Below are positions 3,941 to 52,703 of a stretch of 64,000 nt of DNA, one piece after another; the stretch's first letter is position 1, and the number at the start of each line of letters is the position of its first letter. This DNA is from an uncultured Clostridium sp. (lineage in GTDB: Bacteria > Bacillota > Clostridia > TANB77 > CAG-508), in assembly GCA_902492105.1 (NCBI GenBank), contig CABUKD010000002.1, positions 9,155 through 73,154 of the forward strand. The letters run 5' to 3'. Below the pieces are notes generated by a model. The model searched no databases. It was not told the DNA's origin and worked only from the letters and a program-made list of their open reading frames with translations. Both the position numbers and the translations under genes were made by a program.

Positions 3941-4023
3941 GTCAATGGGGACGGAGAATTTTGACAACTTTTCGATTTAAAAGTTGTCAAAATTCTCCGT
4001 CCCCATTGACAGTCCCCATTGAC
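3941..4023. repeat. 32-bp perfect-stem hairpin plus tandem GTCCCCATTGAC copy; probable terminator of the permease gene and member of the GTCCC repeat family
   Basis: 3941-3972 (gtcaatggggacggagaattttgacaactttt) is the reverse complement of 3979-4010. GTCCCCATTGAC is repeated at 3999-4010 and 4012-4023. The hairpin lies directly 3' of the minus-strand gene that ends at 4031. Confidence 0.6.
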
Positions 4024-4030
4024 ATTAACA

Positions 4031-5188
4031 TTATTTTAGTGCTTGCTTATGCTCATTTTGATAATCTATATATTCTTCTATTAATAATTTAATAACCGTA
4101 AAAATTGGTACTGCTAAGAACATGCCCAATACTCCAAAATAGGCTCCTCCTACTGTCACTGCAAAAATAACCAATAAAGGACTGATAGATAAAGAGTTTC
4201 CAATAATTTTAGGGTTAATAATATTGGCATCAATTTGTTGCAGAATAATAACTATAATGGCCATAAGAACTGCCTGACCTAGTCCTCCTGTAAATAAAGT
4301 AATAATAATTGCAACAATGACAGCAATAATTGCTCCAAAATAAGGAATAAGGTTAAATAATCCTATCATAAAGCCTAATAATACTGCATATTTTACACCA
4401 AGAATTGACATCGCAACAGATGTTAAAATTCCTACTACTATTGCATCTAATACTTGCCCTGCCACAAATTTAAAAAATACTTCATTTGATTTATTAAAAT
4501 ACCTGCCTACTAATTGGTAAGTATCTTTGTTAAATAAAGCACTAGAAAGCCTTTTCAAAAAATTCAAAATTCTTTTTCTTTCTGCTAACAAATAAACCGA
4601 AACAATGAAAGACACAAAAATATCAAAAATGCTATTAACTACATTAATAGCTCCTTTTGCATATTGTGCTAATCTTTCTAAGTTAAAAAATTGTTTTAAA
4701 TCAATTTCACTAATATTCTGAACTAAATTTAAAATCACATCACTTTTCCAAAAGGAATCTTCTGGTAATTCCTGAATGGTTGCCATAGTATTATTATAAT
4801 AGTTCCCAAAATTATTTACAAAATCCACAATACTTCTACTAATAGTAGGAATCACAAAATTAAGAGCCAAAATTAATAACAAAATAGCAATAATATACAC
4901 TGTAATAATAGATAGTATCCTTGCTTTTTTTGAAATCCATTTTGGCTTTTTTACTTTTCGATAGATACTTTCTATTTTTTTGCAAGGAAGATAAAATAAA
5001 TATGCTATTAGTAAACCAATAATAAATGGCATTAAAATATCTAGCAAGTTATGAATCCAACTTGTAATTTGAGAAAAATTATCTAACAACTTATAAACTG
5101 TTATAATGGCTACACCTAGTAAAAAATAATAAATCCATTTTGTAAAACCTTTTTTCTTTTCCTCCATATTTTTCCTTTCTTCAGCCAT
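4031..5188 (-). CDS. AI-2E family transporter (PerM/YtvI-like permease)
   Basis: The protein is 385 aa with about 8 TM helices. Its C-terminal half (GLFNLIPYFGAIIA...NIINPKIIGNSLSISPLLVIFAV) matches the AI-2E/UPF0118 signature. Confidence 0.8.
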   Translation of the reverse strand: MAEERKNMEEKKKGFTKWIYYFLLGVAIITVYKLLDNFSQITSWIHNLLDILMPFIIGLLIAYLFYLPCKKIESIYRKVKKPKWISKKARILSIITVYIIAILLLILALNFVIPTISRSIVDFVNNFGNYYNNTMATIQELPEDSFWKSDVILNLVQNISEIDLKQFFNLERLAQYAKGAINVVNSIFDIFVSFIVSVYLLAERKRILNFLKRLSSALFNKDTYQLVGRYFNKSNEVFFKFVAGQVLDAIVVGILTSVAMSILGVKYAVLLGFMIGLFNLIPYFGAIIAVIVAIIITLFTGGLGQAVLMAIIVIILQQIDANIINPKIIGNSLSISPLLVIFAVTVGGAYFGVLGMFLAVPIFTVIKLLIEEYIDYQNEHKQALK

Positions 5189-5375
5189 TAGGGACGTTCC
5201 TTGTTGGCTGATTTTCAGCCAGAAGGGACACTCCTTGTCGGGCTAACTTATAGTCATAAGAAACATCATGATTTGCTAACTTTCAAACAGAAGAAGCAGT
5301 ATTGTTAAATCATTTTCAACTGAAGAGGACTGTCCCCAGTGGCTGATTTTCAACCAAAAAGGAACGTCCCTAATG
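5181..5375. repeat. Nested palindromic GGGACGTTCC / GGCTGA-TTT-TCAGCC repeat cluster (BIME- or MITE-like)
   Basis: 5188-5220 (ttagggacgttccttgttggctgattttcagcc) matches the reverse complement of 5341-5373 at 28 of 33 positions. A second degenerate unit lies inside each arm. The cluster ends overlap the permease start codon and the xth stop codon. Confidence 0.7.
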
Positions 5376-6137
5376 GTCGATTTCTAATCCAATAGGGCAA
5401 TGGTCACTTCCCAGAATATTCGAATAGATAATACTTGCTCTTATATTTTTTTCTATTGATTTTGATACAATAAAGTAGTCAATTCTCCAACCTACATTTT
5501 TTTCTCTTGCATGAAACATATAGGACCACCAAGTATAGGCATTTTCTTGATTTGGATATAGATAACGGAAGGAGTCTGTAAATCCTTCTGATAATAATTG
5601 TGTCATTTTTTCTCTTTCTTCGTCTGTAAAGCCTGCACTATGATGATTTGTTTTTGGATTTTTTAAGTCAATTTCTTCATGGGCCACATTAAAATCACCA
5701 CAATAAATAACTGGTTTTACGGTATCTAATTGTTTTAAATATTGTCTAATTTCGTCTTCCCATATCATGCGATAGGATAAACGTTCTAGTTCTCTTTTAG
5801 AGTTTGGTGTATAACAATTTACTAAGTAAAAAGTTTCAAATTCTAGAGTGATAATTCTTCCTTCTTGGTCATGCTCTTCTTTGCCAATTCCATAGGTAAC
5901 ATTTAATGGTTTTTGTTTTGTAAATACTGCTGTTCCAGAATATCCTTTTCTGATAGCACTATTCCAATAAGAATGATAGTTTTGAAACAGATTTTGTATA
6001 GATATATCGATTTGGTCTTCTTGCATTTTTGTTTCTTGAATACAAAAGATGTCAGCATCCGCTTGTTTAAAAAAATCACTAAATCCTTTTTGCATAGCTG
6101 CTCTTAATCCATTTACATTCCATGAAATTAATTTCAT
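5370..6137 (-). CDS. xth: Exodeoxyribonuclease III (AP endonuclease)
   Basis: MKLISWNVNGLRA...FCIQETK...GDFNVAH...WRIDYF...GSDHCPI are the canonical ExoIII/EEP family motifs. Confidence 0.92.
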   Translation of the reverse strand: MKLISWNVNGLRAAMQKGFSDFFKQADADIFCIQETKMQEDQIDISIQNLFQNYHSYWNSAIRKGYSGTAVFTKQKPLNVTYGIGKEEHDQEGRIITLEFETFYLVNCYTPNSKRELERLSYRMIWEDEIRQYLKQLDTVKPVIYCGDFNVAHEEIDLKNPKTNHHSAGFTDEEREKMTQLLSEGFTDSFRYLYPNQENAYTWWSYMFHAREKNVGWRIDYFIVSKSIEKNIRASIIYSNILGSDHCPIGLEIDH

Positions 6138-13665: not shown

Positions 13666-15831
13666 CTAGGTACCTAATGTGTATGGATCATCTGATGTTC
13701 CACTTCCCCCTGTTACTTTGATTCCAGTTTTTAGTGTAAATATTGGACGAATGCCATAAGTAGCACTAATTGAACTAATACCACCTGCTTTCACAGTGCA
13801 CAAGTCGCTAGCATTGCTTATACTGCCACTACCGCTTGCATATATTATACCAAAATAGCAACCATATGAGCTTGCATCTATAGTACGCGATGCTACCCAG
13901 TAAGTATCACCTATACCATATATTCCTAGTGCTCTCATTTGATTCCAATCTATTTGATGTTTATTATCTGCATTTTTAAACTTTCCGTTATAATTTTTCA
14001 TAAAACTTTCACTACTTGTAAACATTCCGGCTCCATCATAATTTGGATCATTTGGAACACTTCCTACACTTCTTACCTTATCTGCATAAGTTGTATTTAT
14101 ATATTTAGTTCCTGCATTATTTAGTATCGTTATTGCATTATTATATGAATTCATTGCTGTATTAAAATCACTACTTCCTAAAGTTACATCTCCTAACGTT
14201 TCCATTGTAATTATTTGTATTCCATAACTTGAATAATTTGCATTTTCTGGTCCATATAATACTACACATTTTATTGTTTGACCTGTTCCATCCTCATAAT
14301 ATACATATTTTCCTTCCTTTAATACTTCATTTATACTTGGAAGCGCAGGATTTACTGTTACACTACATGTTGCTTGCATGTTGCTTCCGTCATTTGCTTT
14401 TACTGTTATTGTTGTTGTTCCTTCTGTTTTGGCTGTTACTAAGCCTGTATTACTTACTGTTGCAATATTATTATTGTTACTACTCCAAGTTACTGATTTA
14501 TTATTTGCATTATTTGGTGTTATTGTTACGCTTAATTGTTTTGTTTGTCCTTCTTCTAATATCACACTAGTTGGACTTACTGTTATTCCTGTTACTAATT
14601 GTGTTACGCTTATTCCTTGTGATATGCTTTCTATTTTATTTCCTGCTTTGTCTACTGTTAATACATGTAAATAGTAAGTTCCTGGCGTACTTGCATTTAA
14701 TGTAATTGGCTGATCATTGCTAAATGCATTGGTATAACTACTTTCTTCTGTTCCTATTGGATTTTGGTTCATGTTATATATCCATTTACATTTTGTAAGT
14801 TCTACTCCACTTTCATTATCTGTATGAGTTACTGTAGCTGTTATACTTCCTGTTGTTGTAACACTTGTTCCACTTAATTCTATTTTTGCTTGTTGCGGTT
14901 TTTGGTTATCTAAAATATTTATACTTGTATACTCTGTTATATTTGTTCCATCACTTAATACCGCATATACCACATCTCCATATTTCAAGCCTGTTATTCC
15001 CTGTGTATCATCATAAGGAAGGTATGTTCCCTCTATATTATTTATTTGATATAAAATATTTACATTTTGCACTTGTGTTTCTAAATGGATAGTTGCTGTT
15101 CTATTATTCCATTGTGTTTCTCCTTTTTGAGTAATAATTCCTTTTAATTCTCCTATTAGCACTTCTGTTACTTTTTCTGTTGTTCCATTTTCGTTGGTTG
15201 CTTCCACTTTTATTTCATATGTTGTTTTATCTGTTAGTCCTGTTATACTTACTGTTAAGTCTGTTGTGTCTCCTTTTACTAGTTGATAGTTTTCGCTTGG
15301 TTCATCTTTTTGTTTATAATAATAGCTTAATGTCCCTCCATTTAATCTACTTACACTTACTTGTAATTCTACGCTATTTGTTGTTTGGCTTATTACTGTT
15401 ATTTCTTTAATATATGGTAATAAATTATCTTCTTTTCCTATGTAGTCTACCTCTACATCATCATATTCATTGATATGAATGTGAAATTTATATCCTTCTG
15501 GTACAGTAATGATATAATTTCCATTATCATCCATTTTTTCTACATCTTTATCTTTGTTTTCTATAATTCCTGCATTTTGCATATCTTGCCATAGATCATC
15601 TACTGTTACTGTATCATCTAATTGCCTCTTTAATGACCAATTGATTCCTACAATTCCTATTCTATCTTTGTAGCTTGCTATCAGTTGCTCTTCTTTAGAT
15701 TGTTTTGCTAAGTCTATAATTCCACCATCTCCAATGGCAGTTTGAATAGTTATTCCTGCTAAAATTAGCAAAATTACAATAGTTACTACTAGTGCAATTA
15801 GTGTAATTCCCTTTTCTTGTATTTTTTTCAT
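13666..15831 (-). CDS. Surface protein with prepilin-like N-terminus (no Glu+5), FN3-like and Big_2 domains, and a WxASR...GxRPxFTLK C-terminal module
   Basis: MKKIQEKG|ITLIALVVTIVILLILAGITI resembles a class III signal, but position +5 is Ala. The Big_2 segment is VTGITVSPTSVILEEGQTKQL...TITVKANDGS. The RBS GGGGG lies 8 nt upstream. It is a paralog of 16278..18473. Confidence 0.85.
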   Translation of the reverse strand: MKKIQEKGITLIALVVTIVILLILAGITIQTAIGDGGIIDLAKQSKEEQLIASYKDRIGIVGINWSLKRQLDDTVTVDDLWQDMQNAGIIENKDKDVEKMDDNGNYIITVPEGYKFHIHINEYDDVEVDYIGKEDNLLPYIKEITVISQTTNSVELQVSVSRLNGGTLSYYYKQKDEPSENYQLVKGDTTDLTVSITGLTDKTTYEIKVEATNENGTTEKVTEVLIGELKGIITQKGETQWNNRTATIHLETQVQNVNILYQINNIEGTYLPYDDTQGITGLKYGDVVYAVLSDGTNITEYTSINILDNQKPQQAKIELSGTSVTTTGSITATVTHTDNESGVELTKCKWIYNMNQNPIGTEESSYTNAFSNDQPITLNASTPGTYYLHVLTVDKAGNKIESISQGISVTQLVTGITVSPTSVILEEGQTKQLSVTITPNNANNKSVTWSSNNNNIATVSNTGLVTAKTEGTTTITVKANDGSNMQATCSVTVNPALPSINEVLKEGKYVYYEDGTGQTIKCVVLYGPENANYSSYGIQIITMETLGDVTLGSSDFNTAMNSYNNAITILNNAGTKYINTTYADKVRSVGSVPNDPNYDGAGMFTSSESFMKNYNGKFKNADNKHQIDWNQMRALGIYGIGDTYWVASRTIDASSYGCYFGIIYASGSGSISNASDLCTVKAGGISSISATYGIRPIFTLKTGIKVTGGSGTSDDPYTLGT

Positions 15832-15954
15832 TTCTTGTTCCCCCTAAGCTTTAGTTATTTTTAGCATTTTTCTATTTTTTATTCTTTTGATTAGTTGATT
15901 TATAAATTTTCGTTTGTATTTTTTATTTCATTATACTATTCTTTTATTTCTATG

Positions 15955-16196
15955 TAAAGAAAAAAGAAGATGAATTATGTATTTTTCCTACATAACCCAT
16001 CTTTTAAATTCTGATATTTTATATATAATTTTGGTACAACAAATAAAACTAAATATTCTTCAGTTGTTGGTTTAAAAGTTAACTCTCTCTCTCTCTCTCT
16101 CTTACTGTTTCAATACCTTCAAGCATTTTTGTTTTTTCTCCTTCGCTCTTTTCTTTTTTCTACCTCCATTATACCAATATGCATTTTATTTTTCAA
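15955..16196 (-). promoter_or_regulatory. Leader module copy 1: sigmaA promoter, leader ORF with (AG)10, intrinsic terminator
   Basis: The promoter reads, on the minus strand, TTGAAA (16196-16191), N17, TGgTATAAT (-10 at 16173-16168). The RBS GGAG (16141-16138) precedes ATG 16126-16124. The terminator pairs 16003-15989 with 15981-15967 and is followed by CUUUUUUCUUU. Positions 7 and 8 of the stem are G-U pairs only in the minus-strand RNA. Confidence 0.7.
16083..16102. repeat. (CT)10 / (AG)10 dinucleotide microsatellite
   Basis: Counted directly: 10 CT units between gttaa and tactg. Confidence 0.97.
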
Positions 16197-16277: not shown

Positions 16278-18473
16278 CTATATTCCCAATGTGTATGGAT
16301 CATCTGATGTTCCACTTCCCCCTGTTACTTTGATTCCAGGTTTTAGTGTAAAAACAGGTCTTAGCCCATGAGTAAAGCTATTTGAGCTAAAAGTTCCCGT
16401 ATCATAGATATAACATAAATTTTCATTTGTTAAATTACCAGTAGTACCCATATAGTATATATCAAAATAAACATCTTCCTTGTGTGAAGTTACATGACGA
16501 GAAGCTAACCAATAATTCTGATCGGAAGCTGCTATTCCTAATTTTGTCATCTGTTCGCGATCTGTTAAGTAGTTATTATCTCCTTTTAAAAATGAACCAC
16601 TATATTTTTGTGAAAATGATATATATTGGTATTCAGTAGCTTGGGAATTTTTATTATTTGGTACACTTCCGACACTCCTTACATCATTTGCATAAGTTGT
16701 ATTTAAGTATGTTTCTGCTTTTTTATTTAGTATATAAATTATTGCGGTATTATATGAATTCATTGCTGTATTAAAATAAGTTTCATCTTTATATTGATCA
16801 CTGCCTGTTCCATTTCCCAACTCTACATCTTCAACTGTATCTTTTGTAATAATTTGCACTCCATAACTTGAATAATTTGAATTTTCTGGTCCATATAATA
16901 CAATACATTTTCTAGTTACTCCTGTTCCGTCTACATATTGCACATAGTTTCCTTCTTTTAAAGTATTTTCTACTAAGAGTGGTTTTTTTATAGTTACTGT
17001 ACATGTTGCTTGCATGTTGCTTCCATCATTTGCTTTTACTGTTATTGTTGCTGTTCCTTCTGTTTTGGCCGTTACTAAGCCTGTACTACTTACTGTGGCT
17101 ATATTTGTATTATTACTACTCCAACTTACTGCTTTGTTACTTGCATTGTCTGGTGTTATGCTTGCTGTTAATTGCTGTGTTTGTCCTTCTTCTAAAGTTA
17201 AACTTGTTGGACTTACTGTTATTCCCGTTACTAATTGTGTTACTGTTACCCCTTGTGATATACTTTCTAATTTATTTCCTACTTTATCTGCTGTTAATAC
17301 ATGTAAATAATAGGTTCCTACTGTACTTGCACTTAATGTTATTTTTTCTCCATCACTACTAAAACTATTTGTATAATTACTTGCTTCTGTTCCTATTGGG
17401 TTTGAATTTGTGTTATATTCCCATTTACAATTTCCAATATCTACTCCAGTTTCATTATCTATATGCGTTACCGTTGCTATGATACTTCCTGTTGTATTCG
17501 TAGTATTTCCACTTAATTCTATTTGTGCATTTTGTGGATTTATTTGGTCTAAAATATCAATACTAGTATATCCACTTTGATTGATTCCATCTGTTATTAG
17601 TGCATATACAGTTTGACCATGATTTAGTCCTGTAATTGGTCCTTTATAATCTAGCCATTGTCCTTCTGTTCCTCCTACTTGATATTGAATAGTTACTCCT
17701 GTTTCTGTTGTTTCTAATTCTATTGTTGCTGTTCCATTACTCCATACTGTTTCTCCTTTTTGGTTAACTGCTCCTGTTAATTCACCTGTTGTTACATTGA
17801 TTACTTTTTCAGCTGTTCCGTTTTCATCTTCTACTACTACTTTTATATTATACACTTTTTGTTGTTCTAAGCCTGTAAAATCTGCTGTTAAGTCTTTTAC
17901 TCCTTCTTTGGATGCTACATAACTACTATCTGGTTCTCCATCTTTTTTATAATAATAGCTTAAACTTACTTCTCCTTCTGATCTTGTAATTTCTACTTCT
18001 ATATGAATACTATTACTTCCACTAGTTGAAGTAATTTCTCCTATTTTTGGTGGCAAACTATCTCCTTTTACCACATCTCCTATACTAACATTTCCATCTG
18101 GACTCACAATAATTTCTACAATATATCCTTCATTTGTTGTTAATTCGTATCTATCATTTTCTCCATCTTTTTCTGGTCCTGCTACATCTTCATCTGGATT
18201 ATCGATTATATCTGCATCTACCATTTTGTCCCATAAATCATCTACTGTTACAGTTGGATCTACTGCTCTTCCTATACTCCAATCTGCTATTACATTATTG
18301 ATTCTATCTTTCAATGCCCCTATTTCATGTTCTATTTTTGCTTGATTTGCTATGTCAAAAATGCCTCCATTGCTAAATAGTAGATTGATGGTTATTCCTG
18401 CTAATATGAGTAATACTACTATAGTTACTACTAGTGCTATTAAAGTGATACCTTTCTCATTTTTTTCTTTCAT
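16278..18473 (-). CDS. Surface protein with prepilin-like N-terminus, FN3-like and Big_2 domains (paralog of 13666..15831)
   Basis: The N-terminus is MKEKNEKG|ITLIALVVTIVVLLILAGITI. The Big_2 segment is VTGITVSPTSLTLEEGQTQQL... The C-terminus LRPVFTLKPGIKVTGGSGTSDDPYTLG is almost identical to its paralog's. Confidence 0.85.
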   Translation of the reverse strand: MKEKNEKGITLIALVVTIVVLLILAGITINLLFSNGGIFDIANQAKIEHEIGALKDRINNVIADWSIGRAVDPTVTVDDLWDKMVDADIIDNPDEDVAGPEKDGENDRYELTTNEGYIVEIIVSPDGNVSIGDVVKGDSLPPKIGEITSTSGSNSIHIEVEITRSEGEVSLSYYYKKDGEPDSSYVASKEGVKDLTADFTGLEQQKVYNIKVVVEDENGTAEKVINVTTGELTGAVNQKGETVWSNGTATIELETTETGVTIQYQVGGTEGQWLDYKGPITGLNHGQTVYALITDGINQSGYTSIDILDQINPQNAQIELSGNTTNTTGSIIATVTHIDNETGVDIGNCKWEYNTNSNPIGTEASNYTNSFSSDGEKITLSASTVGTYYLHVLTADKVGNKLESISQGVTVTQLVTGITVSPTSLTLEEGQTQQLTASITPDNASNKAVSWSSNNTNIATVSSTGLVTAKTEGTATITVKANDGSNMQATCTVTIKKPLLVENTLKEGNYVQYVDGTGVTRKCIVLYGPENSNYSSYGVQIITKDTVEDVELGNGTGSDQYKDETYFNTAMNSYNTAIIYILNKKAETYLNTTYANDVRSVGSVPNNKNSQATEYQYISFSQKYSGSFLKGDNNYLTDREQMTKLGIAASDQNYWLASRHVTSHKEDVYFDIYYMGTTGNLTNENLCYIYDTGTFSSNSFTHGLRPVFTLKPGIKVTGGSGTSDDPYTLGI

Positions 18474-18699: not shown

Positions 18700-18749
18700 A
18701 GGTTATTAAAGCATTTTTATTTCATTATACTATTCTTTTATTTCTATGT

Positions 18750-18982
18750 AAAAAAAAAAGAAGATGAATTATGTATTTTTTACATAACTCATCTTTTATG
18801 TTTTTATTCTTAATATATAATTTTGGTACAACAAATAAAACTAAAATTTTTTTAGTTGTTGGTTTAAATGTTAACTCTCTCTCTCTCTCTCTCTCTTAGT
18901 GTTTCAATGTTTTTCAATTTTATCCTCTTTTCTTTTACTTTTTTACTATTTTTAGTATAATATAACTTTATTTTATTTGCAA
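18750..18982 (-). promoter_or_regulatory. Leader module copy 2: promoter, (AG)11, intrinsic terminator
   Basis: On the minus strand the promoter is TTGCAA (18982-18977), N17, TATACT (18959-18954). The terminator arms are 18795-18781 and 18775-18761, followed by a run of nine U residues. The leader ORF here has only a TTG start (18917-18915). Confidence 0.65.
18875..18896. repeat. (CT)11 / (AG)11 microsatellite
   Basis: Counted directly: 11 CT units between gttaa and tagtg. Confidence 0.97.
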
Positions 18983-19080
18983 TAGTTTTACTATTTTTTC
19001 CTTATTATAATTAATATGACATTTAGTGTCAATACAAAATTATGACAATCTATGACATAATTTTAGTGGTGATAATATAT

Positions 19081-19290
19081 ATGATAAGTGAGAAAAGAAA
19101 GCAACTAGGTTATACACAAGAAAAAATGGCTTTATTGCTGAATATTAGCTTAAGGCAATATGTTAGAATAGATAAAGAAATTTGTTTTCCACGAGTCGAT
19201 ATATTAGAAAAGTTAATTCATACATTAAGTTTAATCAATGAAGAAATAGGACAATATGTTCATGAATTTATACAAAAAAAGTCAGGCTAG
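19081..19290 (+). CDS. Small XRE-family helix-turn-helix protein
   Basis: SEKRKQLGYTQEKMALLLNISLRQYVRIDKE is a typical HTH_3 motif. The track start is 19042, but the internal Met at 19081 gives the usual N-terminal spacing. The 3' end overlaps the spoIIE stop convergently. Confidence 0.65.
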   Translation: MISEKRKQLGYTQEKMALLLNISLRQYVRIDKEICFPRVDILEKLIHTLSLINEEIGQYVHEFIQKKSG

Positions 19291-23016: not shown

Positions 23017-26000
23017 CTACTTCTTTTTCATAACCTTTTTCTTAATAACCACAATTCCAGCAACAAGAAGTATTCCTACTAAAATTCCAATTCCATAATA
23101 TAAGTATGCTTGTCCAAATGGTGGTAATATCACTACCTTTTCTGCTCTACTACTATCTACTTCTGTTGGAGTTTTGGTTGGATCTTGATTTCCTACTACA
23201 GAATATGCCATTCTTCTTCCTGCAGTATTAGAAGTTTGTACAATTTCGGCAATATTTTCATAGGTTTTATCATCTTGGCTGTCGCTAGTAGTAATTAATT
23301 GTGTAAGGATTAATTGTTTGCTTACTTTTTCTCCTGGTTTTAAACTATTAGATAATTGTTCTGTTTGTAAAATAGTATTATAAGAACCAATTTGTTCTGT
23401 TAAACTATTATTTACTAATCTGTCATTAATATGTGCATTATCATTATTGGTTAAGTCATTTGTATTAACTACTTTCCATCCTTCATTGTCCGTTTCTCTA
23501 TATTGTAAATTATTTGCTACATAGTCTAATACTAAGTTTGCAGTTGTAGTTACTTTACTTTCTTCAGATGCACCTGTTGCTTTGTAGTAGAAGTCTTTGC
23601 CTGTATAATCTGTTTCGCCAGCATTGGTTACTGTTAATTCATATGTAATTTGAATCGTTGCACCATGCATTAGTTCTACATCTAGTATTGGTTGGATTAA
23701 TCCGTTTTGCCCACCTTGGTATAAACTTGCAATTAATTTATCAATTTCGGTTCTGTATGAATAACGGTTGTAGTTTACATCTTCCTTACTTTCCTCATAA
23801 TATGCTTCATATTGATCTTTGTCCATTTTACTACTTAAGTCATAAGGCTTGCCAGATACCCAAATTAAGTTTGGAACTGACTTACTTGCATCAAATGCAA
23901 TGTTTCCATTAGCTAAAGTGATTTTTACATTACTTACTTTTTTGTCTAAAGTAAGCTGTGCTTTTGGTCTTTCGGTAAGTCCAAAGTCTACACAATTTAA
24001 TGTATAATTTCCATTTTTGTCATTATTGTATAAGTATTTATCTGTTCCATTACTTTGGCTATTTAAACCATCTGTATTGGTTCTGTTATATTCTCCTTCT
24101 ATTACAATAATAGCAGTTTGCGCAGTCATATGTGTATTTTGCATTAATTCTTGTACCAAGCTATTATCAATAGAAGCCATATATGGTGATGCTAAAACTT
24201 CTGCTTTATGGTTATTTACATTAGAAGTACTATAAGCATTTACATTGGTTCTACCTTGATATGTTTCGTTTTGGTAGTTAGTTTTACTATTCTGTGTTCT
24301 TCCAGTATTGATGGTTTGATTTTCCCATAAATCTTTTGCATCTGATAAGTCTGTTTTTCCATTTGCGCTTAGTTCGTCTGCTTTTTGAATATTGTAATAT
24401 TCATCTGTATAGTTTGCAATAGATTGGTTATTTTTTAGGTCTTGTTGATATACAGTTGATTTAAAGTCTTGACCATTGTAGGATACTGCATTTTTGCCAC
24501 CATTGTTAGCAGTTAAAACGGTTTCTTGGTTATTTCCATATTGAAATCTTACCACATAGTTACCTGGTATAAAGTCACTAAATTCATAATATCCCTTTTC
24601 ATTTGTCGTCGTTGTTTGCCATACATATTCTTTACCATCTTTCATGATCTCTACTAGTTCTACAGTAACTCCTGCAATTCCAATTTCGTCTTTTTGTCTA
24701 ATACCATCTCCTAAAACGGATTTGCTTATAGATTGTGTTCTTTCATCTTCCCAAGCAGTACCATTTATTTTACGAATAGCACTTTGCTCTAAGTATACTT
24801 TAATGCTTTTTGCTCTATCAGTATCATCTTCAAAGTTCTTTTCGTATTTTTCACCTTCTAAATCATCTAAGCTTAAGTTTCCTGGTGTTGAGTTATTATC
24901 GATAATTCCTGCAGGTGTTTTATTATTTTTGATTGTTTGTTTATTTGGAAGTTTTTCTCCTTCTGCATAATAGTTTTCGTAGCCATTAATTTCTGCATAA
25001 TTTTCTTTTAAACTTTGGTCGTTATCTATAATAACTGGTCCTTGATTATCTGAATTTACTTTAAATGTTAAGTAAATATAAGCATTTTCTCCTGTTGCTA
25101 GTTTTTTACCATCTAATCCACGAACATAAACTGAGTTTAGTTCTTCTTCTATATCTTGTTTAGAATCTTCTCCATAAATACTATCTCCACAGTAGTTTCC
25201 ATTTCTGTCTTCACTAATTCCATAACTACTGTTAATGTTTCTAGCATAGGCAATTTGGCTTAAATCTAAGTTATGTATCATATTATAGTAGGCTTCATCT
25301 GTAATTGCTACTTTTTCGTTGCCATCTCTATTACTATCTTTATACATTACCCAAGATAAGTCTGGCATATAGGTATAATCTTTATCATAGTAGTCTACTA
25401 CTTCTGTAATTTCATTTAGAATATTTTGTGAAGAGTTTCTAATGGTAATTTTATAAGTTACATATAATTCTAAATTACTTCCATAAAGGTTGGTATCTTC
25501 TGCTCTATATTCATAATCTGCTGGGTATAATTCTCTATTATAGTTTGTTCCATAATAGTTGTAGTAGTCTTGCATTCTGATTTGAATTTCCCAATATTTA
25601 TCATCTTCTGAACGTTTATCATATTCATATACTTCTGTTTTTCCATTAATTTTGGTTGCTGCACGATAAATATCTTTTCTTAAAGATAAATTATTTTCTT
25701 GTCTTCTCCATAAGCCGGCATTTACATAGTATTGACCATCATAAATTGGTGGTTTTGTACCTACTCCTGGAATTACCATTTTTTTATTGCCAATTACAAA
25801 GTCATCATATACAGGGTATAGGTCTATTTCTCCATCTTCAAAAGGAGAACCAGTATAAGCTTGCATTTTACAATCTTCTATAAATTGTAGTTTTTTCCAA
25901 AGTTCTTCTTTTTGCTTTGCTGTTCTTGCAAAATCATTTACAATATCTTCATAGATGTCAAGCATTGCTCTTTCATCTGGATATTCTAAATAGCGATCCA

Positions 26001-28206
26001 TATATCTTTGGATTTTTTTACTAATTTCGCCTTCTTGAATTTTGTCTGTTTCTACAATGTTGCCTTTTCTGTCGATTTTGTAAAATCCATCTATTAGTTG
26101 TACATCAGTCTGTTCATATTCTCCATCTTCGTTTAGGGTAAATCCCATTAAATCATTAATAGAAAATGTTTCATTATAGTAGTTTCTACCATCTTTTAAT
26201 AACTCTCCGCTTCTTAAAGAATTGCTAGAAATATAGTTTTTTGGTGCTGAACCAATTTCTTCAAATTGTTCATTATATTCTTCCCTTGTCATTTCTAGTT
26301 TTGTATCATTTTCCCCACCATCTTGTAATTCAGTTACTTTAGAGGTAGCTTCCCAAATTTCGGTATTATATAGTTTGGCATTATATACCATGTCTGTTAC
26401 AGAATCTTGGTGTACTAGGTTTCCATTCTTTTTTTGGTCAGTTACTAAATATTCTGTTGGTAAATAAATTTGGCCATTATATTCAAATGTGACATAATAT
26501 TTGCTTTCAGAATTTAATCCATCAAATTCATAATATCCATTTTCGTCTGTTAAGGTTGGGTTCATTCTATAAGCAATTTCTCTATCTGTTAAACTTTCTT
26601 TATCTGCTTCAGATAATAGGTCTGCTACATAACTTACTAATTTGCCATTTCTATATTGTAAATTTCCATTTTCATCTAATGGACATTCATATAAAGTAAC
26701 TTTTACATTTGGAAGTACTCTATCATTTGCCTCTCCATTATATAAATCAGAGTGAATACCATCTGCTATATTTTGTTTGGTATCTTTTACATCTTCCCAT
26801 ACATAACCACCTAAATTCATGGTGATATCTAATTTTTGGTCTCCTCCACCAGTTAAATTAATAGTTAGTTTGTATAGGTTTCTTTCTCCCCAAGCATCCA
26901 TCATAAATTGTTGTGGTACAGGATATTCTGTTACTTTCCAACGATAGTTTACGCTACAAGAAGTTAAATCTCCGTCTTTGTTATAACTATCGTGGTGTCC
27001 TGTTTCAATTGGTGTTGCTACTAATTGGTGTCCTTCTAATTCACAAGCAATAGCATAAGTAGTCATATAGGAATACTCTACACTAATGTCTATATATCTT
27101 ACTGCATCATTGCTGTCTAATACTCCTTGGTTTGGATTTTCTATTTTTAAGTAAAATTCTTGTCCACTTACTGGGTAAGATTGCTCTGTTCTATCTACAT
27201 ATCCTTCTTCTTCTAATGGTGTAAAAAAGTCTAATTTCTTTTCTTCTCCATTTTGGATATAGCTTATAATGTTAGCATCTTTAATATATTGCGTTTTATC
27301 TTTATCATTGTAACCTTTTACTGTCATGTTAGAAATTCCTGCAAATTTAGCAGTAGCAGAATTTCCTTCTACATAATCCATTTTATATGGTCCAATAATT
27401 AAGTATTGTTCTTCTTGATTTACATTGATTTGTACCTTTTCTGTTGTGGTTTCTTTAATTGGATTATCTACATTATTTTTTAGTTCTTCTTCATAATCTC
27501 TATAATCCATAGATTCTTCTTTTAATTGTTCTGCCATATCTAGATAAGTAAATTTTGCTCCACTTGCTTCAAAAGATTCTCCTCTATTTACTTCCATATT
27601 AAGCCAAATAGCTACTTGTTTTACTTCTTGGCTAATGTTTTCTCCCTTTTTAAAATAAGTAGTAGATTTTCCATATACATAGCTTCCATCTGTTGGTGCA
27701 ATAAAGTTATTTGGTGCAGTTACTGTATAAGCACCTGATGGTACTAGTTCTGTGTGATTATTGACACAAATATAATAGGTATTGGAATAACGTTTTGCAG
27801 GTAAGGAAGCTTTGTGAGAACCTGAACTTACACTACCTGTTGTTCCATCTAGTGCTTTAATAGTAGCTACTAGATTTTCGTTCATTTCTACTGATACTCC
27901 TTTTTGGATACAGTAAAGCTGAATATCTCCAATGGAAGGACAAAATACTTTATTTACTTGGCTTGGTAATGCTTCATAATAGAAACTTCCATTTTGATAA
28001 AAAGCTGGGCTATCGTGAGCACCTTGTGTAACTAGAGTTCCATCTGCTACAGAGCCATTTACTGCTAAAGCTTCTTTAGTAAGTTTTGCAACTTGTTGTA
28101 TTGGGCTTTCTTCATATTTTATCAAAGAAGAAATAGTAACAACTAATGCGACAAATAAAAGTATAAGACCCAATACGAAAAGTGTAATTTTTCTTTTACC
28201 TTTCAT
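23017..28206 (-). CDS. Giant surface adhesin, module 1 gene B: N-terminal anchor/signal, thioester-domain signature, SdrD-B/Cna-B-like and isopeptide-type domains, C-terminal sorting-like signal
   Basis: LYCIQKG (Cys99, nt 27910-27912) and VKQVAIW (Gln197, nt 27616-27618) match the YCxE/TQxA(I/V)W thioester pattern. GGYVWEDVKD...TDENGYYEFDGL and GTAWEDERT...NEKGYYEFSDFIPGNYVVRF are SdrD-B-like. The C-terminus is VVILPPFG, then a hydrophobic helix, then KKKVMKKK. Confidence 0.85.
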   Translation of the reverse strand: MKGKRKITLFVLGLILLFVALVVTISSLIKYEESPIQQVAKLTKEALAVNGSVADGTLVTQGAHDSPAFYQNGSFYYEALPSQVNKVFCPSIGDIQLYCIQKGVSVEMNENLVATIKALDGTTGSVSSGSHKASLPAKRYSNTYYICVNNHTELVPSGAYTVTAPNNFIAPTDGSYVYGKSTTYFKKGENISQEVKQVAIWLNMEVNRGESFEASGAKFTYLDMAEQLKEESMDYRDYEEELKNNVDNPIKETTTEKVQINVNQEEQYLIIGPYKMDYVEGNSATAKFAGISNMTVKGYNDKDKTQYIKDANIISYIQNGEEKKLDFFTPLEEEGYVDRTEQSYPVSGQEFYLKIENPNQGVLDSNDAVRYIDISVEYSYMTTYAIACELEGHQLVATPIETGHHDSYNKDGDLTSCSVNYRWKVTEYPVPQQFMMDAWGERNLYKLTINLTGGGDQKLDITMNLGGYVWEDVKDTKQNIADGIHSDLYNGEANDRVLPNVKVTLYECPLDENGNLQYRNGKLVSYVADLLSEADKESLTDREIAYRMNPTLTDENGYYEFDGLNSESKYYVTFEYNGQIYLPTEYLVTDQKKNGNLVHQDSVTDMVYNAKLYNTEIWEATSKVTELQDGGENDTKLEMTREEYNEQFEEIGSAPKNYISSNSLRSGELLKDGRNYYNETFSINDLMGFTLNEDGEYEQTDVQLIDGFYKIDRKGNIVETDKIQEGEISKKIQRYMDRYLEYPDERAMLDIYEDIVNDFARTAKQKEELWKKLQFIEDCKMQAYTGSPFEDGEIDLYPVYDDFVIGNKKMVIPGVGTKPPIYDGQYYVNAGLWRRQENNLSLRKDIYRAATKINGKTEVYEYDKRSEDDKYWEIQIRMQDYYNYYGTNYNRELYPADYEYRAEDTNLYGSNLELYVTYKITIRNSSQNILNEITEVVDYYDKDYTYMPDLSWVMYKDSNRDGNEKVAITDEAYYNMIHNLDLSQIAYARNINSSYGISEDRNGNYCGDSIYGEDSKQDIEEELNSVYVRGLDGKKLATGENAYIYLTFKVNSDNQGPVIIDNDQSLKENYAEINGYENYYAEGEKLPNKQTIKNNKTPAGIIDNNSTPGNLSLDDLEGEKYEKNFEDDTDRAKSIKVYLEQSAIRKINGTAWEDERTQSISKSVLGDGIRQKDEIGIAGVTVELVEIMKDGKEYVWQTTTTNEKGYYEFSDFIPGNYVVRFQYGNNQETVLTANNGGKNAVSYNGQDFKSTVYQQDLKNNQSIANYTDEYYNIQKADELSANGKTDLSDAKDLWENQTINTGRTQNSKTNYQNETYQGRTNVNAYSTSNVNNHKAEVLASPYMASIDNSLVQELMQNTHMTAQTAIIVIEGEYNRTNTDGLNSQSNGTDKYLYNNDKNGNYTLNCVDFGLTERPKAQLTLDKKVSNVKITLANGNIAFDASKSVPNLIWVSGKPYDLSSKMDKDQYEAYYEESKEDVNYNRYSYRTEIDKLIASLYQGGQNGLIQPILDVELMHGATIQITYELTVTNAGETDYTGKDFYYKATGASEESKVTTTANLVLDYVANNLQYRETDNEGWKVVNTNDLTNNDNAHINDRLVNNSLTEQIGSYNTILQTEQLSNSLKPGEKVSKQLILTQLITTSDSQDDKTYENIAEIVQTSNTAGRRMAYSVVGNQDPTKTPTEVDSSRAEKVVILPPFGQAYLYYGIGILVGILLVAGIVVIKKKVMKKK

Positions 28207-28242
28207 TTTTAATCATATTCCTTTCTTAAGGTTCAATCTTGA

Positions 28243-28272
28243 TTGAAAAAGAATTTTGTAATTCTTTTTCAA
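28243..28272 (-). promoter_or_regulatory. Intercistronic stem-loop between module 1 genes A and B
   Basis: A 12-bp perfect stem pairs ttgaaaaagaat (28243-28254) with attctttttcaa (28261-28272). No U tract follows on the minus strand. The equivalent junction of module 2 (42194-42215) has no hairpin. Confidence 0.45.
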
Positions 28273-28287
28273 CCTCTCCCTCTCCTT

Positions 28288-31200
28288 TTAATTTTCTCTC
28301 TTTTTACTTAACACATTTCTTTTAATTACTATAATTCCAATTATTAGTAAGAATAAAATTGCTAATGTTAAGCTTACATAAAGTACAATTTTTCCTGTTA
28401 CTACGGATAATACAATATCTGCTGTTGACATATCATCTTCATTTTGTGCGCTATTTGCTTCTTGAGAGTCAATATCTGTTAACCCTTGTTCGTTATAGAT
28501 TTCATAAATTTCTGCATTGTTATTTACTACAGTACCAATATTTTCATCTGTAATGGTAACACTTAAAATTAAGCTTACTTCTTTGCTTTCTCCTGGCTGA
28601 AGTTCTACATTTTCTAGGCTAGTATTATAAACACGGTCATTTTCGTCTGATAAGTACCAATCTTCGTTTAGTTCTGAACTAAATTTAGCACCTTCTGGTA
28701 AGTAATCTACTATTTTCTTTACATAGCCTGGTACTTGTCCTTCATTGGTAACTACCATTTTGTATTCTACTACAATGCTACTTTTACCAATATTTTGAGA
28801 TAGAACTTCTATTTTTTGAAGTTTTTCGTTGTTATAGTTATATACTTTTGTGCCAATGGTTGGAGTAGTTAAAGTAATTTTACTAATATATTTATCTAAT
28901 TTTAAATCAAAGTTTTGAGATTCAATTAGTCCAATGTCAATATCTCTTACATTTCCGTCTGTTACAGAAATAGTATCTGTTACACCTGCATAAGTTTGTT
29001 TTCCATTTAACATAATTTTCATTGCATATACATCTGAGTTATAACTTTGGCTAATACCTTGTTTTTGATATTCTGTTACGGTGTAACTACCTGCATCATA
29101 TAGGAAAATAACTAAATATTCATCTGGTTGTAAGCCCGTAAATTCATAACTTCCATTATCTGCTGTTGTTACTATTTTTTGACTGCCATTTTCATCTATT
29201 ACAATTTCATTATTGGATTTTTTAAGTAACATAACTTGAATACCAGATAATACTTGTTCGGTTTCCTCTCTTTGTCCATTTTTGTTACTGTCTAGCCATG
29301 CAGTACCTGTAATTTTATAAGTTCCTGATGGGGTATTTGTATTATCTCCATCATTTCCAGATTCTCCTTCATATAGTTTAGGATTGTATTCAATAATAGT
29401 ATTAATTGCGTTAGATTCTTGTTTTTGAGTTCCTTGTGCTTCTATGCTTCCTACATTAGTTACTGTTTTGTCTTGTTTATCTTCTGGTAAAAGATCTGCT
29501 TTTGCTATTACTTTTACAGTAGCTTCTGCCCCTTTTTCAAAATTAGTCCATCTTACTTTTGCAGTATTATTAAGGGTAGAGGTAACTACTTCTGTTTGTC
29601 CTTGATAGGTATATTCTAATTTTTGGAAGGTAAGTCCTTCTGGTAATACATCTTCAAAAACAACATCATTTGCGTCTGCATCCCCTGTATTTTTAATGGT
29701 AAATTCATAAGTGATTTGTTCTGCTTCTTTGATATATCTTTCAGAAGTAGTAGTTTGTGTAATTTCAAAACTTGGATTTCCTACATGATAAATTAGTTGA
29801 TTAGAATAATGTGTTTCCATTCCACTTGCTTCTGCTTTTGCTTGATATTGGAAATCTCCTTTAAAGTCTTGTATTTGAAGCTGTAGACTAATACTTTCTA
29901 AGTAACCTGCTTGTAATTGTGGGATTGTTACAATTACTTGGTTATTTTGTATTTGTATATAGTTTTGTTCTTGTCCATTACTATCTTTGTAAGTAGTGCC
30001 ATTAATTTGAATCCCTGCTGGTATGTCGATGGTTACTTTAACATTATTTAGAGTTTCTTTGCTTTCTAATAAAATAGTACTATATAGAATATCTCCTTTG
30101 TGAAGAGATGTTTCTAAATCTCTTGGAACTAATAATGTTAAATTCATTTTTGCTGCTACTTTGTTTAAAACATATTCATTAGAAGCTACACCTGTGGTAA
30201 AATCTTCTGCTGCTACTCTTACTTGATGTTTTATTTCTCCTAATGTGCCTTGATTCATTTTTAGTTCATAAGTAGCATTTGCAGTTTCTCCTACTGCTAA
30301 ATTTCCTAAAGCAATTAGTGGTTTTTCTTCGTTACTATCTACATAAGCTTGATTTGCAGAATCATATTGTGTATAAATAGTTCCTTCTGGCACAGGAACA
30401 TTAATTGTTACACTTTTTGCTTCTTCATTTCCTACATTTTTTACTTGTACAAAAAATCTAACAATTTGTCCTTCTGTTACATTACTGTTTTGTTCCATAT
30501 TGGAACTTAAGGTCACTTCTAATTCTGATCCTTGTCCTGTGGTTAAACCTAATATTGCTGATGTTTTAGTTTCTCCAATAGTTGCTGTTTGTGTTTTATT
30601 ATCATAAGATACTTGGTACATTTGGTAACAGCTGTTGTTATGTGCTAAGTTTCCTGGTAATTCTACTTTATAGCTAAACTGTAATTTTGCACCAGAGTTT
30701 ACTTCTCCAGTTACTACAATTAAATAGCTTTTCATACTAGTAAGATCTTGAGGATTTTCTTGCCATCCATTTGCTGTATTCATTAAGTCTTTATTTGCTT
30801 TTGCATTACTGCTATAATAAATCTTTATTTTGCTAGCATCTATACCAGAAGTAGTTATTTTTTCTTTTAAAAGCATAGCAAAGTTACTTCCTAGGCTTTC
30901 TTCTGTTTCAATATTGGTATTATCGGCAAATGGTAATCTTCCTAAAATCATAACATTTTCAATTGGATTACTATAATTATTTGTGATAATTCCTGTTATT
31001 GTTACTTCTTGTTTACTGCTATGAGTTGGAATGATTGCTTCTTGTTTTTGGTTGCTTATGCTAGTTAATTCAGAAGGTGTTCCGTTGTATCCTGTCATGC
31101 TGTTAGAAGCAATTACCCCTGTTGGTGCTACTAAATTAAGTTCTGTAGTAGCTACTCCTTTTTCTGCTTTAGCTTGTACTGCTCTTGCTTTACTTTGTCC

Positions 31201-33643: not shown

Positions 33644-33740
33644 GAAAGTTTACCACTGACCGATATGTGGTATATAAATGGTCGGGTTGAAAGTTTTCCG
33701 CTGACCAATATGCGGTATATAAATGGTTGGGTTGAAAGTG
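33644..33740 (+). ncRNA. Type III antitoxin RNA: 2 tandem 45-nt repeats plus a 7-nt partial third (ToxI/CptI-like)
   Basis: Repeat 1 (33644-33688) and repeat 2 (33689-33733) are identical at 40 of 45 positions. The changes at positions 12 and 25 are compensatory (ccAc...gTgg versus ccGc...gCgg). The repeats lie directly upstream of a terminator and a ToxN/AbiQ-like ORF. Confidence 0.8.
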
Positions 33741-36186: not shown

Positions 36187-36381
36187 TTGCTTATTCCTCA
36201 CTTTCTCCACTTTTATTACAAATTTATTAAATAGACAAAAATTTTCTATCTAATATAAAATATCATTTTTCGACAAAATTCACTAGAGTATTTTACAAAA
36301 AATGCTTTTTTTATTATAAACTATTTTTGTTAAATTTTTATATCGTTTTTTTATAGTTTTCTAAATTTAAATTTTTATTTT

Positions 36382-42193: not shown

Positions 42194-42215
42194 CTGTTAT
42201 TTGCCCTCCTTTCTT

Positions 42216-50413: not shown

Positions 50414-50624
50414 TCTTTATTCCTCCTACTTACTTCTTTATATAATTTTAATATTTAAACTAATAAAAATTGCAGTATTACCTTTATTTTTTCCATCTTT
50501 TTACTTTTTATTCTTATTCTATTAGTTTTGTATTCTTTTCTTTATTTATGTTCCTTGTTAATTGCTTTATTATTTAAAAGTTTGTTCTTAGTTTATTTCA
50601 TTATACTATTCTTTTATTTCTATG

Positions 50625-50867
50625 TAAAGAAAAAGAAGATGAATTATGTATTTTTTACATAATCCATCTTTTAAATTTTCATACTTGATATATAATCTGG
50701 GTACAACAAATAAAACTAAATTTACTTTAGTTGTTGGCTTAAATTGTAACTCTCTCTCTCTCTCTCTCTCTTACTATTTCAGTACTTTCAAGCATTTTAG
50801 CTATTTCTCCTTCGCTTTTTCTTCTTTTTTCTGTTCACATTATACCAATATCTCTTTTACTTTGCAA
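50625..50867 (-). promoter_or_regulatory. Leader module copy 3: promoter, leader ORF with (AG)11, intrinsic terminator
   Basis: On the minus strand the promoter is TTGCAA (50867-50862), N17, TATAAT (50844-50839). GGAG (50810-50807) lies 11 nt before ATG 50795-50793. The terminator arms are 50670-50656 and 50650-50636, followed by CUUUUUCUUU. Confidence 0.7.
50750..50771. repeat. (CT)11 / (AG)11 microsatellite
   Basis: Counted directly: 11 CT units between ttgtaa and tactat. Confidence 0.97.
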
Positions 50868-52371: not shown

Positions 52372-52474
52372 TTTTTATTCCTCCTATTCGCTCTTTTATA
52401 TAATTTTAATATTTAAATTAATTCTTATTTTATTTCATTATCCTATTTTTTTATTTCTTCATAAACAAAAATTT

Positions 52475-52703
52475 AAGATGAATTATGTATTTTTTTACAT
52501 AACCCATCTTTTACATTTTGATATTTTATATATAATTTTGCTACAACAAATAAAACTAAATTTACTTTAGTTGTTGGTTTAAATTGTAACTCTCTCTCTC
52601 TCTCTCTCTCTTACTGTTTCAGGCATTTTGTGCATTATTCTACTTTCTCCTTTGCTTTTTTATTTTCTATATTCATTATAACAATATTTTTTTCAGTTTT
52701 CAA
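52475..52703 (-). promoter_or_regulatory. Leader module copy 4: promoter, leader ORF with (AG)11, hairpin
   Basis: On the minus strand the promoter is TTGAAA (52703-52698), N17, TATAAT (52680-52675). GGAG (52650-52647) lies 11 nt before ATG 52635-52633. The hairpin arms are 52510-52496 and 52489-52475. The U tract (AAAUUUUUG) is weaker than in the other copies. Confidence 0.65.
52590..52611. repeat. (CT)11 / (AG)11 microsatellite
   Basis: Counted directly: 11 CT units between ttgtaa and tactg. Confidence 0.97.

Follow-up and report, generated by a model that had tools for sequence, protein, structure and literature searches.

Only one species, Streptococcus gallolyticus, has so far been shown to vary phase through a leader-peptide repeat that is coupled to a terminator; its pil1 and pil3 are preceded by a leader open reading frame (ORF) with GCAGA repeats and then by a terminator (Danne et al. 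2014, PMC3894217). With 22 repeats, translation of the leader ends 39 bp short of the hairpin in the reference strain and the majority of transcripts are terminated, the short-frame stops of other strains lying at least 28 nt before the hairpin; one repeat less or more (21 or 23) gives longer peptides, a stop within or after the hairpin and high expression, and the model is backed by start-codon, triple-stop and terminator-deletion mutants (PMC3894217). We describe here a cassette of about 270 nt that occurs four times in a 64,000-nt stretch of DNA from an uncultured Clostridium sp. (contig CABUKD010000002.1, positions 9,155 to 73,154; we call this whole stretch the window and number positions from its first letter), and in which an (AG)n tract lies in a short leader ORF upstream of an intrinsic terminator and a prepilin-like surface-protein gene. 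That the cassette is a non-homologous further case of the rare mechanism already demonstrated experimentally in S. gallolyticus is a mechanistic reading well supported by sequence comparison. A first-pass annotation of the window had stated that no described system combines simple-sequence-repeat phase variation with leader-peptide attenuation; this was wrong, since Danne et al. (2014) demonstrated the same combination at pil1 and pil3 (PMC3894217).

In the literature that we searched, the present element is nowhere described and S. gallolyticus provides the only example of the mechanism, and a 2025 review of phase variation mentions neither S. gallolyticus nor leaders nor terminators. In common with pil1 and pil3, the cassette has a repeat in a short leader ORF that lies after the promoter and before the pilus or adhesin genes, an intrinsic terminator following the ORF, short-frame stops well before the hairpin and long-frame stops in or after it, such that ribosome transit would prevent termination; in both cases there is more than one locus per genome, in a gut-associated Firmicute host. 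The differences are also considerable. There is no sequence relationship, and the repeat is AG (or CA) rather than GCAGA; one frame in three is long here, whereas in S. gallolyticus one repeat more or less than the short state gave long peptides; and at least four cassettes lie within 64 kb, each on a monocistronic prepilin-like gene, as compared to a sortase-pilus operon. An extra conserved hairpin (hairpin 1) and a promoter-like box (P2) are found here, and the cassette is known from sequence alone. All the structural features of the pil1/pil3 mechanism that can be sought in sequence are present, which we take as a likeness of mechanism and not of descent.

Several other systems share part of this logic. 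In E. coli pyrBI, as Turnbough and Switzer are said to have set out in 2008, the leader ORF spans the terminator hairpin, a closely following ribosome blocks the hairpin, and pausing dependent on uridine triphosphate decides the coupling; in rph-1, reportedly the subject of work by Jensen in 1993, a frameshift that ends translation early raises termination before pyrE. The same ribosome-over-hairpin logic would apply to the cassette, but the signal is metabolic there and would be a heritable, reversible repeat frameshift here. The repeats of Neisseria opa (CTCTT) and of Helicobacter pylori oipA, sabA and hopZ (CT/AG) lie in the signal-peptide region of the structural gene and truncate the protein. 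With these genes the cassette has in common a hypermutable repeat that shifts a frame (the dinucleotide being the same in H. pylori) and a surface multigene family whose members carry their own tracts and would switch independently; unlike them, its repeat lies in a separate upstream ORF and would act via transcription termination. The cwpV switch of Clostridioides difficile, reportedly described by Emerson et al. in 2009, is said to be a recombinase-mediated DNA inversion with a terminator in the 5' leader in one genetic state only. It is thus also a case of clostridial surface-protein phase variation via a leader terminator, but by inversion without leader translation, as against a repeat and leader translation here. 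Finally, in Mycoplasma gallisepticum vlhA a (GAA)n repeat upstream of the promoter allows initiation at one permissive length, with no ORF or terminator logic. Both vlhA and the present genes form a large surface-gene family with a shared conserved upstream region and a variable repeat per copy; unlike that of vlhA, the repeat here lies within a leader ORF before a terminator and not upstream of the promoter.

Our preferred account, which we hold to be probable, is that each cassette is a stochastic switch in which ribosome-mediated antitermination is set by the frame of a slippage-prone repeat. Transcription would start from the upstream promoter (P1), and a ribosome initiating after the Shine-Dalgarno sequence would read (AG)n as Arg-Glu repeats, with replication slippage (slipped-strand mispairing) altering n. 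When 2n is not a multiple of three, the ribosome would meet a stop 1-10 codons past the tract, with about 70 nt still to go to the terminator; this would leave the 15-bp hairpin free to form, and most transcripts would end as an RNA of about 190 nt, leaving the gene OFF or low. When n = 0 mod 3 (the long frame), the ribosome would go on for 35-49 codons across hairpin 1 and then across the terminator's 5' arm and loop or farther, and would physically block the terminator hairpin; polymerase would read into the gene, which would be ON or high. More speculatively, hairpin 1 and its U-rich tail might make polymerase pause, giving the ribosome time to close the gap. Translation of the ORF, suppression of termination by that translation, and gene expression via read-through are the steps that we infer from this arrangement. 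The first-pass annotation had proposed a phase-variable translational attenuator, and much of that proposal stands on the polymorphic tract, the in-frame start, the frame asymmetry, the covarying hairpin and the (CA)n replicate presented below; what has to be amended is the level of control, which by this layout would be transcription (ribosome-mediated antitermination) and not translation.

All four copies lie on the minus strand, each 5' of a prepilin-like surface-protein gene, and their alignment is highly conserved from the promoter to past the terminator. The order of elements is P1, a purine-rich leader with GGAG, an ATG (TTG in copy 2), 7-8 codons, (AG)10 or (AG)11, the motif YTARNNTTTAAR, the 7-bp hairpin 1, an AT-rich linker, and a 15-bp hairpin with a T-run; P2 follows in most copies, and the gene begins after another 65-250 nt. 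A 19-mer from the cassette core has exactly four occurrences in the window, identical in all copies (0.65 matches are expected by chance with three mismatches allowed), and the window holds no such (AG)n tract beyond the four (chance expectation about 0.05). The tract lies 219-402 nt 5' of the structural-gene start, in a separate ORF and with the terminator between; the P1 -10 lies about 65 nt to its 5' side and the P2 -35 about 125 nt to its 3' side, and the tract overlaps neither promoter hexamers nor spacers. Rfam 15 covariance models run over the whole window gave no match at the gathering threshold (riboswitches, T-boxes, leaders). The features of the four copies are as follows.

16168-16196, minus strand: copy 1 P1 promoter, TTGAAA-17-TATAAT, TG-extended (scan 11/12; position conserved in all copies)
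16079-16126, minus strand: copy 1 leader ORF, MLEGIETV(RE)3S* (GGAG at 16141-16138; start in frame in all related copies)
16083-16102, minus strand: copy 1 (AG)10 tract (n = 6, 10 or 11 in other assemblies, flanks identical)
16047-16065, minus strand: copy 1 hairpin 1, 7-bp stem AACTGAA/TTTAGTT (pairing and RNAalifold consensus)
15975-16082, minus strand: copy 1 extension in the n = 0 mod 3 frame, LTFKPTTEEYLVLFVVPKLYIKYQNLKDGLCRKNT* (stop inside the terminator 3' arm)
15957-16003, minus strand: copy 1 intrinsic terminator, 15-bp stem, 7-nt loop, CTTTTTTCTT tail (free energy, dG, -16.3 kcal/mol; covariation)
15930-15958, minus strand: copy 1 P2 box, TTTACA-17-TATAAT (scan 11/12)
13666-15831, minus strand: copy 1 gene, 721 amino acids (aa), prepilin-like N-terminus (KGITLIALVV) and Big_2
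18954-18982, minus strand: copy 2 P1, weak, TTGCAA-17-TATACT (scan 9/12)
18864-18917, minus strand: copy 2 leader ORF, (M)KNIETL(RE)3RVNI*, TTG start (GAGG at 18927-18924, 6 nt upstream)
18875-18896, minus strand: copy 2 (AG)11 tract (n = 6, 8, 11, 12 or 18 in other assemblies)
18839-18857, minus strand: copy 2 hairpin 1
18751-18795, minus strand: copy 2 terminator (long-frame stop at 18727-18725)
18724-18752, minus strand: copy 2 P2 box (scan 11/12)
16278-18473, minus strand: copy 2 gene, 731 aa, N_methyl and Big_2
50839-50867, minus strand: copy 3 P1, TTGCAA-17-TATAAT, TG-extended
50739-50795, minus strand: copy 3 leader ORF, MLESTEIV(RE)3RVTI* (GGAG at 50810-50807)
50750-50771, minus strand: copy 3 (AG)11 tract (n = 10, 11 or 14 in other assemblies, flanks identical)
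50714-50732, minus strand: copy 3 hairpin 1
50626-50670, minus strand: copy 3 terminator (long-frame stop at 50608-50606)
50600-50628, minus strand: copy 3 P2 box
49028-50413, minus strand: copy 3 gene, 461 aa, prepilin-like N-terminus and DUF285/LRR
52675-52703, minus strand: copy 4 P1, TTGAAA-17-TATAAT, TG-extended
52579-52635, minus strand: copy 4 leader ORF, MHKMPETV(RE)3RVTI* (GGAG at 52650-52647)
52590-52611, minus strand: copy 4 (AG)11 tract (n = 5, 7, 10, 11 or 13 in other assemblies)
52554-52572, minus strand: copy 4 hairpin 1
52465-52510, minus strand: copy 4 terminator (long-frame stop TAA at 52475-52473 abuts the 3' arm end)
52437-52465, minus strand: copy 4 degenerate P2-like box, TTTATG-17-GATAAT (box not reported by the promoter scan)
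51079-52371, minus strand: copy 4 gene, 430 aa, prepilin-like N-terminus and DUF285

What the first-pass annotation had described of this anatomy was correct throughout. Its tract coordinates and its spacing between GGAG and ATG (11 nt in copies 1, 3 and 4, with the ATG at 16126, 50795 and 52635), together with the TTG of copy 2 at 18917, the only start codon there, were confirmed at all four copies; the ORF does enter the tract as Arg-Glu, with the current peptides and with stops 1-4 codons after the tract as it described. All four copies are now in a short frame (n = 10 or 11), as it noted, and the OFF state assigned to them is a prediction. The third frame is open into or through the terminator, for 35-49 further codons by our measurement as compared to the earlier figure of about 35-55.

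DNA pattern and profile searches found the start codon after the Shine-Dalgarno sequence in frame with AGA-GAG in every related copy. The N-terminal part before the tract has 7, 8, 9 or 10 codons among these copies, so that its insertions and deletions come in multiples of three. Copy 2 and its relatives start with TTG, and GGAG and ATG stand in frame with (AG)n in the ATG-start copies. We consider that the leader ORF is probably translated, judging from this conserved arrangement.

The three frames behave very differently downstream of the tract. As the four window copies stand, translation would stop 68-75 nt before the terminator stem, and the long frame stays open for 35, 49, 47 and 38 more codons in copies 1-4, with its stop 26-68 nt after the first stem base. 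Just 3' of the tract one short frame stops within four codons in all copies examined, and the other within two codons in most; the exceptions, which run 9-11 codons, are TTACAA variants (including window copies 3 and 4) and a TTCGAC copy, L023. Between the tract and the 5' arm of the terminator, a distance of 93 nt, the long frame contains no stop in 24 of 25 unique sequences, as against 2-6 in each of the other frames. The same loci were also taken from other public assemblies via exact matches to the neighbour proteins MinC, SpoIIE and the 430-aa protein. In an unbiased set of 62 locus-by-assembly observations, in the choice of which ORF length played no part, the n = 0 mod 3 frame, whose openness in related genomes the first-pass annotation had put forward as a check, reaches the terminator in 61, ending 26-66 nt after the stem start. 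The sole exception is L014 (2383-2650), in which a CAA to TAA change closes the long frame 12 nt upstream of the stem; this may be a copy locked OFF. The L016 copy, nearly identical to L014, has an open long frame.

Long-frame alleles also occur among called genes. A search with one long-frame peptide returned 107 distinct called proteins from gut metagenomes, carrying (RE)1 to (RE)5, so that long-frame alleles with n = 3, 6, 9, 12 and 15 exist in nature; the copy 1 long-frame peptide with (RE)4 is called in five metagenome contigs (P0054). The long-frame stop in the called peptides is frequently a TAA abutting the 3' arm (…TCA TCT TAA). Seven peptides (P0094, P0098-P0102 and P0104) have a single Arg-Glu, implying n = 3, and such alleles would be locked in the long frame, the tract being too short for ready slippage. 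Other calls (P0006, P0021, P0036, P0074, P0082 and others) begin at an ATG in the P1 -10 (TATAATG) in another frame (…EPAKAWNSK-RERERE…). We treated these long N-terminal extensions as probable gene-calling artefacts, by which n = 1 mod 3 alleles look like long ORFs.

The (AG)n tract is hypermutable at the same loci in assemblies from different people. Over the 62 unbiased observations n ranges from 5 to 18 and is most often 11; the tract-length variation among strains that had been anticipated from the copies of the window is thereby borne out. Assemblies that are identical over 150 nt upstream and 250 nt downstream of the tract differ in n (10/11/14, 7/11, 6/10/11, 11/12, 5/10 and 6/8 in six sets), and the tract therefore mutates far faster than by point substitution. 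This is not an assembly artefact, since tracts of 10-36 nt are below read length and each value is shared by several independent assemblies. Slipped-strand mispairing is the presumed cause of the changes in n. Paralogous leaders may exchange sequence as well: in two assemblies the copy 2 leader (L026 9808-10068 and L031 9808-10064, orthologous to window 18723-18987) is chimeric, being of copy 2 type 5' of the tract (…attgaaacacta) and of copy 1 type 3' of it (ttaacttttaaaccaacaactgaagaatat…), as if paralogues had recombined, or one had converted the other, at or close to the repeat.

The terminator was found by scan in all four copies, with a 15-bp stem, a T-run tail and a dG of about -16 kcal/mol. 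Across 21 distinct sequences 98.7% of cells pair, and three pairs are double-changed in 23 cells; stem variants with changes on both sides include ATGTA/TACAT, ATGCA/TGCAT, ATGCC/GGCAT and ATACTT/AAGTAT. None of 500 shuffles matched this pairing, and sliding the partner by one column cuts it to about 37%. By this covariation we judge the hairpin to be a real intrinsic terminator. Hairpin 1 has 99.2% of cells paired and three double changes; we grade it only probable because all three come from one lineage. Its outer stem ACAAC/GTTGT is not claimed, some variants compensating and others breaking the pairing. An RNAalifold consensus of 29 leaders contains hairpin 1 and the terminator alone, with the AG tract unpaired. 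A possible antiterminator, in which the purine-rich 5' leader pairs over a long range with the U-tract in a single-sequence fold, was dropped, as no antiterminator was found in the consensus fold of the 29 leaders.

Relatives in which the repeat itself is different replicate the design independently. One related strain (L045-L047) has a decayed AG tract and, inserted into that ORF, a segment with (CA)11; the resulting ORF of 77 aa runs through the usual terminator. These CA leaders, with (CA)11-15, lie at L045 10001-10234 and 13911-14153 and at 5989-6231 in L046 and L047; a transposase pair (DDE_Tnp_1 and DUF772) is found directly upstream of the L045 10001-10234 leader. Another (CA)n leader on the same contig shares the 5' part and then passes into entirely different sequence with a terminator-like hairpin (GACAGACTAT-loop-ATAGCCTGTC-ATTTTT), and it too precedes a prepilin-like gene. 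At this leader n = 13 or 16 gives an ORF of 80-82 aa with its stop 16 nt into the hairpin, and n = 12, 14 or 15 gives a stop 85-90 nt upstream of the hairpin; n is 13 in two samples and 15 in one. In addition, the called peptide P0103 contains YIYIYI, which suggests that its leader carries (TA)n. Since (CA)n can take the place of (AG)n, and an unrelated terminator shows the same one-in-three geometry, the switch would depend on frame and not on the AG sequence.

An alternative that these leaders bear on directly is that the tract acts by its length, for instance as H-DNA (it is polypurine-polypyrimidine), as a protein-binding site in RNA, or as a spacer that tunes P1 or P2 in the manner of the vlhA GAA repeats. 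The tract is indeed long, pure and polymorphic, the P2 -35 is about 125 nt further downstream, and the single-sequence fold does pair the purine-rich 5' leader with the U-tract. The repeat is nevertheless interchangeable with the geometry kept, (CA)n and apparently (TA)n replacing (AG)n at the same place of the ORF, which argues against an AG-specific binding site or DNA structure; an AG-specific RNA or protein binding site or H-DNA was therefore rejected as the main explanation. Moreover, the tract is unpaired in the consensus fold and, being about 65 nt downstream of the P1 -10, leaves P1 spacing unaffected, and an action by length would leave the conserved in-frame start, the stops in two frames after the tract and the open third frame unexplained. 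We regard it as very improbable.

A number of points weigh against the antitermination switch that we favour. The 11-nt distance between Shine-Dalgarno sequence and ATG in three window copies is long, and copy 2 has only a TTG start and a weak P1. Occlusion of the hairpin needs a ribosome close behind polymerase, and Bacillus subtilis transcription is said, in work by Johnson et al. from 2020, to largely outrun translation; ribosome-dependent attenuators do, however, function in Firmicutes. The ON and OFF states are assigned from geometry and are thus predictions. The coding signal of the long frame is weak, its ratio of nonsynonymous to synonymous polymorphism (pN/pS) of 0.47 being barely below that of a non-coding frame. 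The long frame is found in 14 of the 62 unbiased copies, not far from the one third expected without selection, and a stop-avoidance substitution test, which was underpowered, was not significant (five stop-creating variants expected, four seen relative to the consensus, one realised). Lastly, P2 is a near-consensus box between terminator and gene, and if it is active, transcription of the gene would be independent of the attenuator.

P2 (TTTACA-17-TATAAT, 11/12) stands just 3' of the T-run in copies 1-3 and in most relatives; the first-pass annotation had overlooked this box, a potential bypass of the switch. The bypass is made less persuasive by three observations: the P2 spacer is as conserved as the P2 hexamers, both hexamers of the copy 4 box are degraded, and six related copies lack P2, with the ribosome-binding site of the gene about 50 nt after the terminator. 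A further promoter-like sequence, a 12/12 match (TTGACA-17-TATAAT, 19004-19032, minus strand), is found a little 5' of the weak copy 2 P1, in divergent orientation to a small gene of the Xre-type helix-turn-helix family (19042-19290, plus strand).

P2 and the called peptides together raise the alternative that P1, ORF and terminator form a gene in their own right, for a phase-variable small protein of 51-61 aa, the pilin-like gene being transcribed separately from P2 and the terminator merely ending the small gene. The near-consensus P2, conserved in most copies, would fit this, as would the 107 distinct long-frame metagenome peptides with their consensus LxFKPTTKENLVLFVVxKLYIKY, some synonymous changes at Leu and Lys codons, and an AlphaFold2 prediction of two helices with a predicted local distance difference test (pLDDT) value of 70. 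The same prediction has a predicted template modelling score (pTM) of 0.32, though, and no Pfam domain is precomputed for any of the called peptides. Amino-acid constraint is weak (pN/pS 0.47, as compared to 0.57 and 0.89 in the other two frames), and the variable sites of the long frame show no third-position excess (15/15/18 by codon position). Peptide residues across the hairpin co-vary with the compensatory stem changes, so that the C-terminal third tracks the hairpin, and the stop position drifts; the (CA)n leader with the other terminator has an unrelated C-terminal peptide and the same geometry. Furthermore, P2 is missing in six copies, and what follows the unit, directly and in the same orientation, is always a member of one gene family. 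We consider an independent small-protein gene unlikely. It is the openness of the frame, and not the encoded peptide, that appears to be conserved, and such weak peptide constraint would fit selection that acts on the passage of ribosomes and not on a protein product.

It could also be that the tract, a hypermutable microsatellite, is neutral and is carried along by an upstream region that is conserved and recombines among paralogues, and that the open third frame is inherited and functionless. Because the copies are 80-95% identical, their shared openness is not independent evidence, and the weak stop-avoidance test, the long-frame fraction close to one third and the paralogue recombination seen in the chimeric leaders are all compatible with neutrality. 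Against this, the tract has been kept long (n of at least 5 in 62 of 62 unbiased copies), changes in N-terminal length keep the frame, and the same layout reappears with another repeat and another terminator. An ancestral open frame of 35-49 codons at about 20% G+C, beside frames with 2-6 stops, would moreover have arisen with a chance of a few percent. Neutrality of the tract seems to us decidedly unlikely, and we retain ribosome-mediated antitermination as the preferred account.

The cassette is tied to one gene family. All four downstream genes of the window have a prepilin-like N-terminus (…KGITLIALVVTI…LLILAGIT), with a weak N_methyl match, followed by adhesin-type modules (Big_2 or DUF285/LRR), and within the window this N-terminus is confined to the four cassette-linked genes. 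Over all loci the segment G-ITLIALVV stands at the start of 21 of 25 distinct downstream genes, with one-residue variants in two more. Pattern scans recovered nine loci in a genome collection (one match being spurious) and nine in a metagenome collection, and the cassette family is confined to a narrow clade of gut metagenome-assembled genomes. The window also encodes SpoIIE, MreBCD and MinC, and the host is an uncultured spore-forming human-gut Clostridium.

Elsewhere in the window, four very large genes (1666-1824 aa; 23017-33288 and 36719-47339) encode surface proteins of the SdrD_B/CLIPPER type with ordinary signal peptides and have no AG-tract cassette. Other repeats are also present. At 3999-4024 GTCCCCATTGACA occurs in tandem, and at 5330-5380 the related units GTCCCCAGTGGC and CGTCCCTAATGGTCG lie inside a 34-nt tandem repeat; these repeats are intergenic, on both sides of a 385-aa gene (4031-5188) and beside a response-regulator-like gene, and may be an operator. 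At 33644-33739 a 45-nt unit, GAAAGTTTACCACTGACCAATATGCGGTATATAAATGGTCGGGTT, is repeated 2.1 times with 90% identity, in the intergenic region between a 1666-aa surface-protein gene and a YcaO-domain gene (34375-36210).

We tentatively put forward a broader possibility, namely that the cassette is a modular and portable switch built from a promoter, a leader ORF, any dinucleotide repeat (AG, CA and perhaps TA), a pause hairpin and a terminator (of at least two unrelated kinds), which this gut lineage has put on every member of its prepilin-like adhesin family. Antitermination would then generate a combinatorial surface repertoire of independently switched genes, P2 would set a basal level, and recombination between paralogues would reshuffle the states. 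If a second and unrelated case exists in a different class of Firmicutes, where it serves a whole surface-gene family and has interchangeable repeats, repeat-controlled leader-peptide antitermination would be a recurrent design and not a curiosity. The signature by which more cases might be sought is a repeat in a short ORF with one frame overlapping a terminator, and gene callers are liable to report such leaders as sporadic hypothetical small proteins. For the organism itself, our finding points to stochastic surface variation in an abundant uncultured commensal of the human gut.

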